Positions 4,199 to 52,541 of a stretch of DNA of 52,541 nt are shown in pieces; the stretch's first letter is position 1, and every line of letters begins with the position of its first letter. Position numbers and translations under genes: made by a program. This DNA comes from a virus, in IMG/VR virus record IMGVR_UViG_3300029258_002096, positions 1 through 52,541 of that record; one strand, 5' to 3'. The notes under the pieces were generated by a model. It did no database searches, was not told the origin of the DNA, and saw nothing but the letters and a program-made list of their open reading frames with translations.

Positions 4199-4609
4199 AT
4201 GAAATATACTCAGGAAGTTGTTGATGCTATTGTAGCCAGCCTAAGAGAAGGCGTACCCATAAAAAAGGTATGCGATCTTGTGGATATTAGTGAGGAAACA
4301 TTTTATGCGTGGCAAAGAGAAAAACCTGAATTTTCTGAGGTTGTAAAAAAAGCGCGTGCTGATAAAATAAAAGATATTTTAAGCCATATACGTACAGCGG
4401 GTGTGGGTGAGACAAGGGTACAAGTTCAGTGCCCGGATTGCAAGGCTAAATTTGAAACAACAATCACTTTACCCACAAAGGCGTGGCAGGCATTAGCATG
4501 GATACTTGAACGAACGGAGAACGAGGACTTTGGACGTAGGTATCAAGTAGGCGGAGGCAAGGAACCCATTAAACATATTATAGAGTTTGTGGATGGAGAC
4601 GATACATAG
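4199..4609 (+). CDS. terS: terminase small subunit
   Basis: N-terminal HTH (IKKVCDLVDISEETFYAW...PEFSEVVKKAR), AWILER motif, overlaps terL; start set at ATG 4199. Confidence 0.85.
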   Translation: MKYTQEVVDAIVASLREGVPIKKVCDLVDISEETFYAWQREKPEFSEVVKKARADKIKDILSHIRTAGVGETRVQVQCPDCKAKFETTITLPTKAWQALAWILERTENEDFGRRYQVGGGKEPIKHIIEFVDGDDT

Positions 4610-48936: not shown

Positions 48937-49415
48937 TGCCAAAACGTCAAACAGATACTGAAATATTAGACCAAGCTTGGTTTCAGGATATGTCATTGTC
49001 GTCAAAGGCTATTTGGTGGTTTTTGGAAAAGCGGGTGGATGTGGCCGGAATATGGAAATTAGATATAATCCAAATGAGACGTATTCTCAAATGTAAAATA
49101 AACATCGAACGCTTTTTAAGGGAAGTGAATAAAGACTACGACAAAATAACGGGTGAAAAAATAGATAAAAAAAGAGTCATACTTATAAACGGTGGCGCAA
49201 AAATATGGGTCGTAAACTTTCTCGCCTTCCAATGGGGAAACAGTAATAGCGTCGTCGATTTAAGATACGGTGCCGTGCGATCTGGCTTAAAAAAAATACA
49301 CGAACACGGTCTTCTGTCAATGGCATTAAAGGAAGGGTTTCTAAGGGTTCGGAAGGGTTCGGAAGGGGTAGAAGAAGAAAAAGAAATAGAAAAAGAAATA
49401 AAAAGACTTATCTAA
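48936..49415 (+). CDS. putative replication initiator/organiser N-terminal-type protein
   Basis: KR..DT....WF..S...K..W.FL...D.AGIW pattern; acidic/basic tail. Confidence 0.6.
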   Translation: MPKRQTDTEILDQAWFQDMSLSSKAIWWFLEKRVDVAGIWKLDIIQMRRILKCKINIERFLREVNKDYDKITGEKIDKKRVILINGGAKIWVVNFLAFQWGNSNSVVDLRYGAVRSGLKKIHEHGLLSMALKEGFLRVRKGSEGVEEEKEIEKEIKRLI

Positions 49416-49530
49416 TATCTCTTATTATATATTTTAAATTATTGTAGATATTAGATGAGCTAAAGCTCAGGAGAAAAATAATGGATAAAAAAGATGGTTG
49501 GTTGATAACCATTAAAACAACTGCGAATAA

Positions 49531-49600
49531 ATATAACGCCGGGATCACCGGCAGGAAGGAGCGGAGCGCATGACTGTCCGTGTGAATCCCGATGTTATAT
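49531..49600 (+). other. attC-like site (70 bp)
   Basis: ATATAAC; GGGATCACCGGCAG vs CTG[T]CCGTGTG[A]ATCCC; GCGGAGCGC centre; GTTATAT. Confidence 0.8.
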
Positions 49601-49992
49601 GTCCCGCGTGCGGTTGGCATGGTCCGCTGACACAAACCGACAATGGGGTCTGTCCACGGTGTGAATATGAGGTAAACGGCGGCGAGCCCTACAGGCTGAT
49701 GACGCTAGCCGAACTTCGCGAGTCAGAACATGGGGCCACATGGTGTGATGTAGACATGCGCGAGTTTCTGCGCGCGGTGGCTGAGGTAGAAGCAGATAAC
49801 GTCAAGCGTCAGGTAGCCGTCTCGCGTCGGCAGACCAACAGCGCTCGTGAACGCGGCCCTTCATGTTGTAGCCCTCCATCCGCTTGTTCGGCATGCCCTA
49901 CGTGTGGCCGCAGCAAGCCGGATTGGGCGGAGTATTGCTCTGAGGAATGTCGCTATGAGGACGAAACGGGGCATCCTGGTTGTGAATACTGA
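49570..49992 (+). CDS. Cys-rich ORF reading through two attC-like sites
   Basis: ATG inside attC 49531-49600; CPACG, CPRC and CPTCG modules. Confidence 0.55.
   Translation: MTVRVNPDVICPACGWHGPLTQTDNGVCPRCEYEVNGGEPYRLMTLAELRESEHGATWCDVDMREFLRAVAEVEADNVKRQVAVSRRQTNSARERGPSCCSPPSACSACPTCGRSKPDWAEYCSEECRYEDETGHPGCEY
49794..49892 (+). other. degenerate attC-like site
   Basis: AGATAACGTCAAGCGTCAGG...GCCCTCCATCCGCTTGTTCGGC; left part parallels 50384-50402. Confidence 0.55.
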
Positions 49993-50022
49993 GCGTCAAC
50001 TATTCGAGAATCTCGAACAGTT

Positions 50023-50080
50023 GCCGAACGGTTAGTTTCAGCGGTGCGCTTTTTGCATCCGCTGCAAACTTTTGTTATAC
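50023..50080 (+). other. attC-like site (58 bp)
   Basis: AGTTTCAGCGGTGC 50034-50047 pairs 14/14 with GCA[T]CCGCTG[C]AAACT 50055-50070; GCCGAAC/GTTATAC ends. Confidence 0.9.
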
Positions 50081-50107
50081 GGCGAACTTAACTAACAGGA
50101 GAAAACA

Positions 50108-50389
50108 ATGGAAAACAATAATCACTTAACACTTAAATGGGGCACACTGAAATCATGGAACTTTAAAGGCAATGAAGAAGCGTGCAAATTATTAAAACGT
50201 TACGGGGAAATCGGTTCATCATTCTCAGCGATGGCGCAAAATGATACGCCAGAACAAAAGGAAATAATTTGCAAGTTAATAGATTTGACACCAGGAGAAA
50301 TATATCTTGATTGGGACGGTGAATACGTTTCAAAAGAAAAAGCAAAAGAATATGTAATGAATTACGGCAAAGAAAAACAAGCCGTATAA
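50108..50389 (+). CDS. cassette-encoded hypothetical protein
   Basis: AGGAG RBS; stop inside GTATAAC. Confidence 0.8.
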   Translation: MENNNHLTLKWGTLKSWNFKGNEEACKLLKRYGEIGSSFSAMAQNDTPEQKEIICKLIDLTPGEIYLDWDGEYVSKEKAKEYVMNYGKEKQAV

Positions 50390-50440
50390 CGTCAAGGGTC
50401 AGGCGCGGCTTTAGCCGTCGCCTGAATCCGCTGGTTCGGC
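50384..50440 (+). other. attC-like site (57 bp)
   Basis: GGGTCAGGCGCGGCT vs AGCCG[T]CGCCTG[A]ATCC; GTATAAC/GTTCGGC ends. Confidence 0.85.
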
Positions 50441-50469
50441 TCCGGTTGGACTGGTGGAGGAGAGGACCA

Positions 50470-50976
50470 ATGAATCCAAAAGAAACACAACGCCGAGAAG
50501 AGATTGGTAAGATCGTTGCCAGCCTTGAACGGTTTGGGAAAATAGGCTGGTGGCAATTTGCGGCCTATCAACAGAAGAAATGGAGATTTGAACTTATATT
50601 ATATGTTATTGATATACTTTACGAAACAGAAAACTTAAGGAGGCGTATCCAGCATTTAGTTGAACAAAAAGAAATGGGCCAACTATACGGGGCGCTGACT
50701 TATTTTATTGATAAATATGCCGGAGAATATTCGGAGACACAGGGTCAAGAACAAAAGCAAGCCGCAAAGGAATGGGCCGACAAAATAGATATACCCATCG
50801 GCCAAAATCTTAAGTCAGACGATCAAATCCGGCTTGAAGGAGAACTTAAAAAACGCCAGCAGAGAGCGGATCAATATTTGCAGGACGGGGACATACATGG
50901 ATACAAAGACCTAAAGCGACAAATAAATAAAATAGAAATCCAGTTGAAGCGAATGGAAAAGCTTCAAAAATTTTAA
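50470..50976 (+). CDS. helical hypothetical protein
   Basis: GAGG RBS; ATG 50470. Confidence 0.6.
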   Translation: MNPKETQRREEIGKIVASLERFGKIGWWQFAAYQQKKWRFELILYVIDILYETENLRRRIQHLVEQKEMGQLYGALTYFIDKYAGEYSETQGQEQKQAAKEWADKIDIPIGQNLKSDDQIRLEGELKKRQQRADQYLQDGDIHGYKDLKRQINKIEIQLKRMEKLQKF

Positions 50977-51011
50977 GGAGGTACTGTTATACGTTTTCTT
51001 AGGAGGACTGA

Positions 51012-51425
51012 ATGGAAAATATACCTGAAAAAATATATTTACAAGTTGACCCTGAAAATGAACAACCAGAAAGTTTTGATGATTTGGCGGAAATAACATG
51101 GTGCAGAGATAAAATTAATGATAACGATATTGAATATGAATTAAGCGGGGTGGAATCGGGTCAGCTTGATATATTGTTAGCTGCCCGTTGTGCCACTTGT
51201 AAGCATTGGGGAGGGGATAAAAAACAATTAATGAAAGTACTTAATGAATATGATATTGAAACTATAAAAAAATATTTAGATGTTAAAGAAGGATGGGCAA
51301 TAGATGGAAAATGTAAAGAATTAATATGTGAATTAATATTTTATGCCTATGGGGCAGGGGTTGATGAAGTAGAGACACCTGCTGGTTTTAGCTGTAATCT
51401 TTATGAATCAGATAAGGGCAGCTAA
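51012..51425 (+). CDS. fusion protein spanning an attC right arm
   Basis: N-terminal IPEKIYLQ...TWC...DIEY module plus cassette module CATCKHW...; stop in AGCTAAC. Confidence 0.7.
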   Translation: MENIPEKIYLQVDPENEQPESFDDLAEITWCRDKINDNDIEYELSGVESGQLDILLAARCATCKHWGGDKKQLMKVLNEYDIETIKKYLDVKEGWAIDGKCKELICELIFYAYGAGVDEVETPAGFSCNLYESDKGS

Positions 51426-51616
51426 CGTCCAGTAATAACCGGCTGAAAGGACTAAGTGATGGATAGAAATCAAGTTATTGAAATTTTGGCAGAATTGCGA
51501 GAAACGGCAGATTACTTACCTACTGACCAAAAATATTTGGATGCTCTTGAACACGCACAGAACTTATTAGAAGAGGGCGGTGCGGAGCAAGGTCCGCGTT
51601 CTGCCGATGGTTCACC
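51420..51616 (+). other. expanded or hybrid attC-like site containing a gene start
   Basis: left arm GTAATAACCGG, right arm GG[T]CCGCGTT[C]TGCCGATG then GTTCACC; arms pair only partly. Confidence 0.5.
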
Positions 51617-51812
51617 AGTGGATGTGCCTGGGGAAAGTGCGGGACTTCAAGACGGGGTGGTGGCTATTGAAAAGAAATTACTTGATACAATTTACGCACA
51701 GATAAAAGGTGTTATTGATAATATGGAACTGCATCCAAAACAGTGTGGATATAAGTGCGCCCTATATGATACTTTTGAAAAATTGAAATTAATTTATGGG
51801 GTGGAGTCTTGA
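51456..51812 (+). CDS. fusion protein spanning an attC right arm
   Basis: GPRSADGSP segment encoded by the arm. Confidence 0.6.
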   Translation: MMDRNQVIEILAELRETADYLPTDQKYLDALEHAQNLLEEGGAEQGPRSADGSPVDVPGESAGLQDGVVAIEKKLLDTIYAQIKGVIDNMELHPKQCGYKCALYDTFEKLKLIYGVES

Positions 51813-51816
51813 AGTT

Positions 51817-52046
51817 GGTGAACGTTTAGGTTCATGTGCCAAATGGAGGACAAAATGAAGAAAAGGAAAATTTGGAATCGTTGTATTTATTGCGGCAGGT
51901 TTATTGGATTGGGTGAGTTTATGAGGGGTGAGGTAGAAACTGATTTTACACCAGACACTCACTTTACATACGAAAAAATTGAACATTATCACAAAAAATG
52001 TAAAGAAGAATGTGGGGATTTGGTCACGTGCTAACTTTGGTTATGC
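51817..52046 (+). other. expanded attC-like site enclosing a whole ORF
   Basis: GGTGAAC; GGTTCATGTGCC vs GG[T]CACGTG[C]TAAC; GTTATGC 52040-52046. Confidence 0.6.
51855..52034 (+). CDS. small Cys/His protein inside an attC loop
   Basis: GGAGG RBS; RCIYCGRFI...HKKC. Confidence 0.65.
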   Translation: MKKRKIWNRCIYCGRFIGLGEFMRGEVETDFTPDTHFTYEKIEHYHKKCKEECGDLVTC

Positions 52047-52049
52047 TTA

Positions 52050-52382
52050 GTGAATACCGGCCACAAGCCGGTGCTTATGAATGGCCAAAGGGCCAGAGGA
52101 GCGAAGATGAACGATAGATTAGACTGGCAACACAAGGGTGGGGTGCTTGACATACCAGATAGACATTTTGTCTATAATGTAAACTTTGATGCTGATGAAC
52201 CTTACATAACAATTGTTGATGCAGAAGATCCTCACACTGAAGAAAAAAAGATGTTAGTACCGAAGTCACTCGCATACTATTTAAGCACGCATGCTTGTGG
52301 ATCACGGAAAATGATGGAGAATTTTATAGAGCAAGGACGGCATGAGGTGCGGGTGGGGTTTCAAAGGCTATTGGGATTATAG
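52050..52382 (+). CDS. hypothetical protein (probable cassette gene)
   Basis: follows GTTATGC core; followed by truncated attC-like CACTAAC...ATAACCGGCAAAAAC...GTTTTTG[T]CC 52395-52437. Confidence 0.6.
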   Translation: MNTGHKPVLMNGQRARGAKMNDRLDWQHKGGVLDIPDRHFVYNVNFDADEPYITIVDAEDPHTEEKKMLVPKSLAYYLSTHACGSRKMMENFIEQGRHEVRVGFQRLLGL

Positions 52383-52457
52383 GCCCTTTGGCAACACTAA
52401 CATGAATAATAACCGGCAAAAACAAGCGTTTTTGTCCAAACATAAAGGAGATGAGCA

Positions 52458-52541
52458 ATGAAAAGTAAGGCCGCAAAGTTAGCGTTTTTGTCCGTGTTCG
52501 TTATTGGGTTATTCGGCATTACGGGGTGTGGCGAAAAGAAC
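52458..52541 (+). CDS. lipoprotein, truncated by window end
   Basis: MKSKAAKLAFLSVFVIGLFGITGC lipobox. Confidence 0.6.
   Translation, partial: MKSKAAKLAFLSVFVIGLFGITGCGEKN

Follow-up and report, generated by a model that had tools for sequence, protein, structure and literature searches.

The virus record IMGVR_UViG_3300029258_002096 of IMG/VR was analysed over its whole length of 52,541 nucleotides (nt), which we call the window. We describe here an array of small genes and inverted repeats at its right end, in particular four consecutive genes, A to D, and the repeats in and around them (Table 1). The window is a phage-like contig in its entirety, with every gene on the + strand, and it encodes a large terminase, a portal, a major head protein, a tape measure and a NinG/Rap-type nuclease. 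It corresponds to C10:4936-57387, where C10 is a contig of a host metagenome-assembled genome (MAG; 2.38 Mb, 98% complete), and C10 coordinates include DNA upstream of the window. Arrays of small genes lie at both contig ends, C10:1-9500 and window 49400-52541, and most of their genes end in xTAAC, the TAA of which is the stop codon. Our analysis suggests, with a probability of about 0.6, that the stretch represents the far end, partly decayed, of an integron-type array in a phage without an integrase, i.e. a CALIN (a cluster of attC sites lacking an integrase), with gene fusions and with a gene in the loop of a site. The original prediction, made from the DNA letters, had described boundary matches of 11 bp and 8 bp in two open reading frames (ORFs) and a site enclosing the whole of gene C, the stop codon of which lies in the right arm; all of these features are found where it placed them.

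Table 1. Genes, boxes and sites of the analysed stretch (window coordinates; RBS, ribosome-binding site; aa, amino acids)
Feature	Position	Strand	Description
Orphan GTT box GTTATACG	50986-50993	+	just before the gene A RBS; lacks both an L box 12 nt upstream and a downstream AAC box that matches
Gene A	51012-51425	+	137 aa; N-module aa 1-46 (MENIPxKIYLQ...DIEY), linker, C-module aa 55-137 (RCxTCxHWxGD...FxCxLYE)
GTT box GTTAGCTGCCC	51176-51186	+	inside gene A, codons 55-59, start of the C-module
AAC box GGGCAGCTAAC	51416-51426	+	contains the gene A stop TAA 51423-51425; presumed crossover box
Left half-site	51420-51441	+	AAC box, 3-nt spacer, L box CAGTAATAACCG; no right partner that pairs well
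Gene B	51459-51812	+	117 aa; N part, low-complexity linker from putatively site-derived DNA, C part; GTG 51456 also a possible start
Putative translated site relic in gene B	51555-51617	+	AAC-like box GCACAGAAC (51555-51563), short inner hairpin, L box GTTCTGCC, GATG, GTT box
Boxes of the relic	51598-51605, 51610-51617	+	L box GTTCTGCC, spacer GATG, GTT box GTTCACCA
AAC box TGGTGAAC	51816-51823	+	4 nt after the gene B stop
attC-like site, 230 nt	51817-52046	+	AAC 51821-51823, spacer, left L arm 51828-51844, loop 51845-52017
Right side of the 230-nt site	52018-52046	+	right L arm 52018-52037 (bulges T52024, C52031-T52032), spacer, GTT box 52040-52046
Gene C	51855-52034	+	59 aa; CxxC...HxxxC motifs; own RBS GGAGG 51845-51849
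Gene D leader	52039-52106	+	homologous to C10:634-703; hairpins ACCGGC-CACAA-GCCGGT 52056-52072 and GGCC-AAAG-GGCC 52083-52094
Gene D	52107-52382	+	91 aa; bracketed by TTAGTG 52047-52052/CACTAA 52395-52400 and by an 11/11 repeat 52084-52094/52382-52392
AAC box CACTAAC and left half-site of next cassette	52395-52415	+	right limit of the C+D unit in metagenome contigs

Layout and mobility of the sites

The sites share one layout on the + strand. An AAC box (the 5' arm) is followed by 3-7 nt, an L box, a variable loop, a second L box starting with GTTC, 4 nt and a GTT box (the 3' arm), and the distance between the GTT of the L box and the GTT of the outer R box is constant at 12 nt. We found the strict right-half pattern with this spacing in six copies on the + strand of C10, all within the arrays, and in no copy on the - strand. 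Chance would give about 0.05 copies in the arrays; 18 copies lie elsewhere, in 4.6 Mb counted over both strands. A seventh copy at 52028, at the extreme contig end, is seen only in the scan with the window tail appended. Left half-sites are also enriched (seven found against ~0.5 expected), and 14 of the 73 TAAC/TGAAC boxes in the arrays have a perfect reverse complement of at least 8 nt within 650 nt upstream, where ~0.7 would be expected. A contig-wide scan gave 15 box pairs of at least 9 nt, and the two terminal arrays account for 11 of these. Box pairs number more than 1 per kb here versus 0.036 in 80 loci of phages with a related terminase. These loci lack the repeat signature, and the array is therefore not characteristic of this phage lineage.

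In all paired sites the unpaired bases belong to the 3' arm (+ strand), across from the arm with the AAC triplet. On the recombining strand of attC sites, cleavage by the integrase falls within AAC, and the extrahelical bases are on the other arm (Nivina et al. 2016, PMC5027507). By this comparison the sites would be reversed relative to the genes when set against bacterial integrons, and the coding strand looks like the recombining strand. The extrahelical bases T52024 and C52031-T52032 of the gene C site follow this rule, as do those of a second site at C10:405-646.

Two motif candidates were discarded. The pair of 10-nt repeats at 51644/51806 is probably a chance match, with ~19 perfect 10-mers expected per window at spacings of <=400 nt, and ATAACCGG is frequent genome-wide in coding DNA and cannot serve as a site-specific motif. 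In public collections the half-site patterns gave matches at chance level, 42 genome matches occurring at about the chance rate; a match in locus L092 lies within a helicase gene, shares nothing with C10 and was rejected. The scan of the window against Rfam, which has no attC family, gave no match, and neither PHROGs nor Pfam assigned a family to genes A-D. No deposited phage matched 49400-52541 by blastn, and among 73 host-family genomes the DNA of 50900-52541 matched its own contig only.

A cassette of 395 nt occurs in two identical copies, at C10:1510-1904 and C10:4685-5079 (window -250 to 144). The left limit is TAAC, the right limit is GAAC, and the flanking DNA is unrelated on both sides. 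This one direct footprint of mobility places the crossover in the AAC box and not at an arm inside the ORFs. This cassette has its own L and GTT boxes inside an ORF. The perfect duplicate probably explains why the assembly was not closed.

Population variants were sought in four metagenome runs from three studies (sediment 2018, seawater 2021), taken as Logan contigs and not as reads; in such contigs stretches without branch points are no proof that variants are absent. One unitig ends exactly at 51823, the C of an AAC box. Another runs unbroken from 51796 to 52427 across genes C and D, with the next unitig starting at 52398, and one contig joins 51825 to 52398, i.e. the C+D block is absent or replaced. 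Branch points in this stretch occur only at the outer AAC boxes and none occurs at 52035, which argues that the loop cargo travels as part of the cassette. The population data fit one cassette, 51823-52400, with gene C within its site, and the contigs of the four runs gave no sign of gene C moving on its own. Unit mobility with crossover in the triplet is thus seen in one duplicate and in samples that are possibly non-independent. A 26-mer across the variant junction was not found in public collections. Further branch points or loose ends lie at or near boxes at window 49537, 49589, 50413-50466 and 51630-51660, and one metagenome contig has another gene behind a near-copy of the site 50413-50454. 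These extra branch points suggest that the phage population holds more cassettes than the contig shows.

Genes A and B

By comparison of protein relatives, gene A is shown to be a join of two independent protein families at a GTT box. Among 1.84 billion representative proteins, gene A had 522 matches at E <=0.001, and most of the best 150 of these span aa 1 to ~46. Among them are stand-alone proteins of 46-60 aa as well as longer ones, up to 288 aa, whose C-termini are unrelated. Seven of the best 150 span only aa ~40-134. Four of the C-module relatives are stand-alone proteins of 74-85 aa (P0042, P0052, P0107 and P0120), the first residue of which aligns to query position ~51-57, so they begin within ~5 codons of the inner box; three others have different N-terminal extensions, and their homology starts at LL-x-x-RC (codons 55-60). 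With two independent families and a GTT box spanning codons 55-59, gene A joins the two families exactly at the box. The boxes GTTAGCTGCCC and GGGCAGCTAAC, which bracket the C-terminal part, are perfect reverse complements (11/11). Upstream of gene A we found no left half-site but only the orphan GTT box, suggesting that the site once separating the two units is largely gone. The N-module family is widespread in phages without any such sites, and variable C-termini are therefore a trait of that family; here the C-terminus is a cassette unit.

The N-module (window 51012-51149; MxNIPxKIYLQ...TWC...INDxDIEY) occurs alone or fused to many unrelated C-termini and matched neither a Pfam nor a PHROG family. 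One member, in a phage that is AT-rich and unrelated (L010), is flanked by a 22-bp direct repeat (L010:3942-3962 and 4346-4366). At L010/L011:4001-4202 this contig and L011 are identical up to GATGTTAGC and then encode different C-terminal domains, that of L011 being bracketed by GTTAGCAACTGGG and CCTTGTTGTTAAC, an inverted repeat of 10/13. The motif GTTAGC at the divergence point was considered as a general N-module junction motif and rejected, being absent in 18 further loci of the family.

Gene B likely switches modules at a site arm as well, as judged from DNA homology. Its internal box GTTCACCA and the box TGGTGAAC behind its stop codon are perfect reverse complements (8/8), and the L box GTTCTGCC lies 12 nt upstream of the internal GTT box, i.e. 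at the constant L-to-R spacing. The 14 nt at 51592-51605 are identical to the L region of an intergenic site, C10:3623-3636. A local alignment of 51508-51644 with the intergenic site C10:3541-3683 scores 54, while shuffles score 22.9 +/- 4.4 with a maximum of 47; the aligned DNA takes in the 14-nt identity, the L-to-R spacing of 12 nt and the AAC-like box GCACAGAAC. The peptide encoded by the relic stretch is of low complexity (EEGGAEQGPRSADGSPVDVPGESAG). In the metagenome contigs, a related module with the same GTT box stands behind a different right half, GCTAAC-ACTG-GTTCACCAG. In both genes the end box is complementary to the start of its own unit and not to that of the neighbour (11/11 in the C-module of gene A and 8/8 in the second part of gene B). 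The claim that these ORFs switch modules at a site arm thus stands for gene A, and for gene B it is likely at the DNA level.

An alternative hypothesis could be that genes A and B were never fused. They would then be intact cassettes, each with a long site loop that holds the RBS, the start and the first 45-55 codons, and no module switch would have occurred. Such a layout does exist on the contig. At five places a left and a right half-site are separated by 178-213 nt, with gene starts in between, and at four of the five the arms pair well; the halves in gene B are 178 nt apart. At least three other cassettes of the contig have the long-loop layout, and the duplicated 395-nt cassette, which is of this type, moves as one unit. 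We nevertheless consider this explanation unlikely. Gene A lacks a left half-site, having only the orphan GTT box upstream, and its two parts belong to independent families, of which some members stand alone and begin at the arm. In gene B the left half-site 51420-51441 pairs poorly with the right half (p 0.07), and a complete site relic adjoins that right half. The poor pairing suggests that gene B is two units read through a decayed site.

Gene C, its site and gene D

Gene C lies within the 173-nt loop of the 230-nt site, and right-arm DNA encodes its last ~8 codons and its stop TAA (52032-52034). RNAduplex pairs the arms at 51839-51844/52018-52023, 51833-51838/52025-52030 and 51828-51832/52033-52037, with AAC 51821-51823 on GTT 52040-52042, and leaves T52024 and C52031-T52032 unpaired on the right arm. 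The energy of the arm duplex is -19.0, compared with -9.4 +/- 3.9 for equally spaced non-array pairs of the contig (p 0.016, using RNA parameters), so the arms pair better than the background at equal spacing. A short site of the family has p 0.048 in the same test.

The site C10:405-646 is a paralogue. It has the same 6-1-6-2-5 geometry of stems and bulges with the same unpaired T and CT, and five of its 12 inner pairs differ from those of the gene C site by compensatory double changes. An unrelated gene of 47 aa occupies the loop of this paralogue. The right arm and leader of the gene C site are homologous to C10:608-696 (score 70 versus 17.5 +/- 3.3; E 4e-5). Short members of the family exist too: C10:3525-3612 is a short-loop relative of C10:405-646, with scores of 25 versus 11.3 +/- 2.4 for the left halves and 36 versus 14.6 +/- 2.8 for the right halves. 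The loop cargo in this site family is none, a 47-aa gene or a 59-aa gene, which indicates that the loop content has been exchanged at least once.

Relatives of gene C point the same way. They have 80% (P0153) and 72% (L137 and L138) identity, sit behind an SSB gene where the DNA has neither boxes nor half-sites, and have different C-terminal tails after HYHxxC, while the tail in the window comes from arm-homologous DNA. That the site encloses the complete gene C is supported by its structure, with bulged L-type arms unlike ordinary cassette ends, and by the paralogous sites. The further claim, that DNA is inserted into loops and may follow a second insertion route, holds in part. DNA entered loops or was exchanged in them at least once, as the varied or missing loop cargo and the arm-free relatives with other tails indicate. 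Nothing here shows a separate site-specific route; genes C and D behave as one unit, and a second route into loops is conjecture.

Gene C could also be an ordinary cassette, in which case the inverted repeat would be its own cassette ends and the neighbouring sites would have shrunk to AAC-N4-6-GTT mini-hairpins. Free folding does favour local mini-hairpins on both strands, and as nested inverted repeats the two descriptions are topologically equivalent. We regard this as quite improbable. Cassette-end pairs elsewhere are perfect and free of bulges, whereas the arms around gene C carry the 1-nt and 2-nt bulges of the paralogue on the 3' arm and the 12-nt L-to-R spacing; moreover, the unitigs are unbranched at 52035, and genes C and D vary as one block.

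Gene D has no relatives in IMG/VR. Its left repeats are separated by a 31-nt insert that has its own hairpin, an arrangement resembling a split GTT box. The leader of ~70 nt (window 52039-52106 and C10:634-703) is common to two different genes and contains the motif GGTTATGCTTAGT. Its first hairpin has a conserved CACAA loop on a covarying stem (ACCGGC/GCCGGT versus GCGGC/GCCGC), and the second, GGCC-N4-GGCC, stands directly before the RBS. The shared leader may be a regulatory RNA element or a part of the site family. The cassette behind gene D opens, at window 52459-52541, with a lipoprotein-like ORF (signal peptide, lipobox ITGC) that runs off the window end.

Interpretation and relation to known systems

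We propose the following mechanism for the integron-type array. The sites have an attC-like build, in which the R stem contains AAC/GTT, a short spacer leads to an L stem whose unpaired bases are all on the same arm, and the loop is variable, and they would be reversed relative to the genes. A cassette would begin at the C of an AAC box, take in its own hairpin site and then its gene, and end with the TAA of the following AAC box, as seen in one duplicate and presumed for the others. Gene A joins two formerly independent small proteins at the GTT box of the second unit, presumably with loss of the intervening site, and gene B would have arisen by in-frame reading through a decayed site into a second box-bracketed unit. 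The site before gene D would have gained gene C in its 173-nt loop, gene C having lost its native tail and ending in the right arm, and genes C and D would move or be replaced as one cassette. Since the crossover is in the AAC box and not in the ORF-internal arm, the fusions are more likely decayed or partly deleted sites than fresh joins. Cassette sites of this kind can build composite proteins and carry loop cargo.

Several observations weigh against this interpretation. Neither the MAG (98% complete) nor the 72 further host-family genomes searched (73 in total) yielded an integron integrase, in a family search that had no positive control, and recombination is consequently deduced from footprints only. 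The four metagenome runs may include source samples and be non-independent, and the joint 51825/52398 may hide letters between its sides. All boxes in the region have AAC or GTT, while the other positions fit the consensus RYYYAAC/GTTRRRY partially (R positions matched after GTT: 2/3 in GTTAGCT, 1/3 in GTTCACC and 2/3 in GTTATGC). The attC sites of integrons are usually ~57-141 nt long with a short variable terminal structure, and the default limit of IntegronFinder is 200; the site 51817-52046 has 230 nt and a loop of 173 nt. Free-energy folding of 51813-52050 (238 nt) missed the long-range arms on both strands (z +0.98 and +0.58). The minimum-free-energy folds thus give no single hairpin and prefer two local mini-hairpins, TGAAC-GTTTAG-GTTCA and TAAC-TTTG-GTTA. 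In an alignment-only arm test 31 of 500 shuffles were as good. The gene B halves pair poorly, as given above, and gene B has no relatives in IMG/VR or among 5.8 billion proteins, hence no protein-level proof of two modules. Lastly, the folding strand is the mRNA strand, and RNA and DNA roles of the hairpins are inseparable.

The integron-type array might be taken further. We speculate, while rating it as rather doubtful, that the loop is a second cargo compartment, in which captured genes or gene starts are expressed from their own RBS and move along with the cassette, and that, as ORFs are read through the arms, reshuffling or decay of sites joins loop N-modules to cassette C-modules. This would be site-directed domain shuffling of small phage proteins, possibly by a non-IntI recombinase.

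The hairpins could instead act in RNA, in processing, stability, termination or translational control of a polycistronic early transcript, and the cassette look would be secondary. All structures are on the sense strand, stop codons and RBSs lie in or beside arms, the hairpins of the gene D leader covary with C10:646-703, and attC sites themselves are thought to contain weak terminators (PMC9892861). We give this little credence, as it leaves unexplained the AAC-bounded duplicate, the unitig branch right after AAC, the conserved AAC/GTT and the unit ends that match their own starts and not those of neighbours; there is also no Rfam match.

The sites might also be real single-strand recombination sites that serve another enzyme, such as a host XerC/D-type recombinase or a Y1 HUH transposase. 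Recombinases of the XerC/D type act on folded DNA in the integration of filamentous vibriophages. No tyrosine recombinase is encoded on the phage contig, and Pfam found no recombinase among 20 further ORFs. The MAG encodes three PF00589 proteins, which are Xer-like, lie on other contigs and are all under the cut-off for integron integrases. It also has three open frames of the Y1_Tnp family (IS200-like/HUH; 261-315 aa; C43:10112-10447, C18:9658-9987 and C17:36710-37042), none of them on the phage contig. These three Xer-like and three long Y1_Tnp proteins, the lack of IntI in the MAG and the family, and the deviation of the boxes from RYYYAAC/GTTRRRY would suit this explanation. We see a slim chance for it, as the arrangement of R and L boxes, with the unpaired bases across from the AAC arm, is that of integrons, no conserved subterminal hairpin plus guide of the HUH type is seen, and attC sites of phage CALINs without a local integrase are substrates of IntI1 (PMC9892861). 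That the repeats are chance matches in AT-rich small-gene DNA is next to impossible: for all the chance 10-mers expected in the window, the enrichment, strand bias, box consensus, position at stop codons, compensatory changes and protein module boundary refute it for the box-bearing pairs.

The integron-type array can be compared with known systems. In class 1 integrons, fused gene cassettes arise by loss of the attC site between two cassettes. The array is similar in that two units would be locked together after decay of the intervening site; it differs in that the fusion is translational, the site DNA is read as a linker and two independent families are joined.

CALINs have been found in 17 phages, and IntI1 recombined five of their sites (Qi et al. 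2023, PMC9892861). Cases with several ORFs between sites and with diverging site directions are noted for some phages (PMC9892861). With at least two attC-type sites and no integron integrase nearby, indeed with many sites on C10, our array shares with them the small cassettes, the attC-type hairpins and the element without an integrase. It is, in contrast, much larger and known from sequence instead of a recombination assay; every site is reversed relative to the gene, many loops have 170-210 nt with coding DNA, and ORFs are translated through arms. Like classical attC sites (PMC5027507), the sites have AAC/GTT in the R stem, L-stem unpaired bases opposite the cleaved AAC and a variable terminal loop, and like classical cassettes each cassette end matches its own start. 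They differ from classical attC by a loop of ~173 nt instead of tens of nt, by cargo in the loop, by genes on the recombining strand and by boxes that fit RYYYAAC/GTTRRRY in part. Cassette insertion by the integrase outside att sites is a documented second route with genomic targets (Loot et al., bioRxiv 10.1101/2022.09.11.507474). As far as that source describes them, its targets are genomic sites and not hairpin loops, and nothing here indicates use of that route. The array belongs to the known phage CALINs, and its reversed orientation, coding loops and translated arms set it apart.

Integron cassettes are usually described as a single gene without a promoter and, behind it, a short hairpin site. 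In this array the hairpin comes ahead of the gene, a loop can enclose an entire gene, the arms are read as linkers and one product joins two independent families. With no integron integrase seen in the host lineage, one may ask which enzyme serves this phage. Should the sites be active, software for finding attC sites should accept wider size limits and orientation, and phages could put together multi-domain proteins and two-gene units by site-specific recombination.

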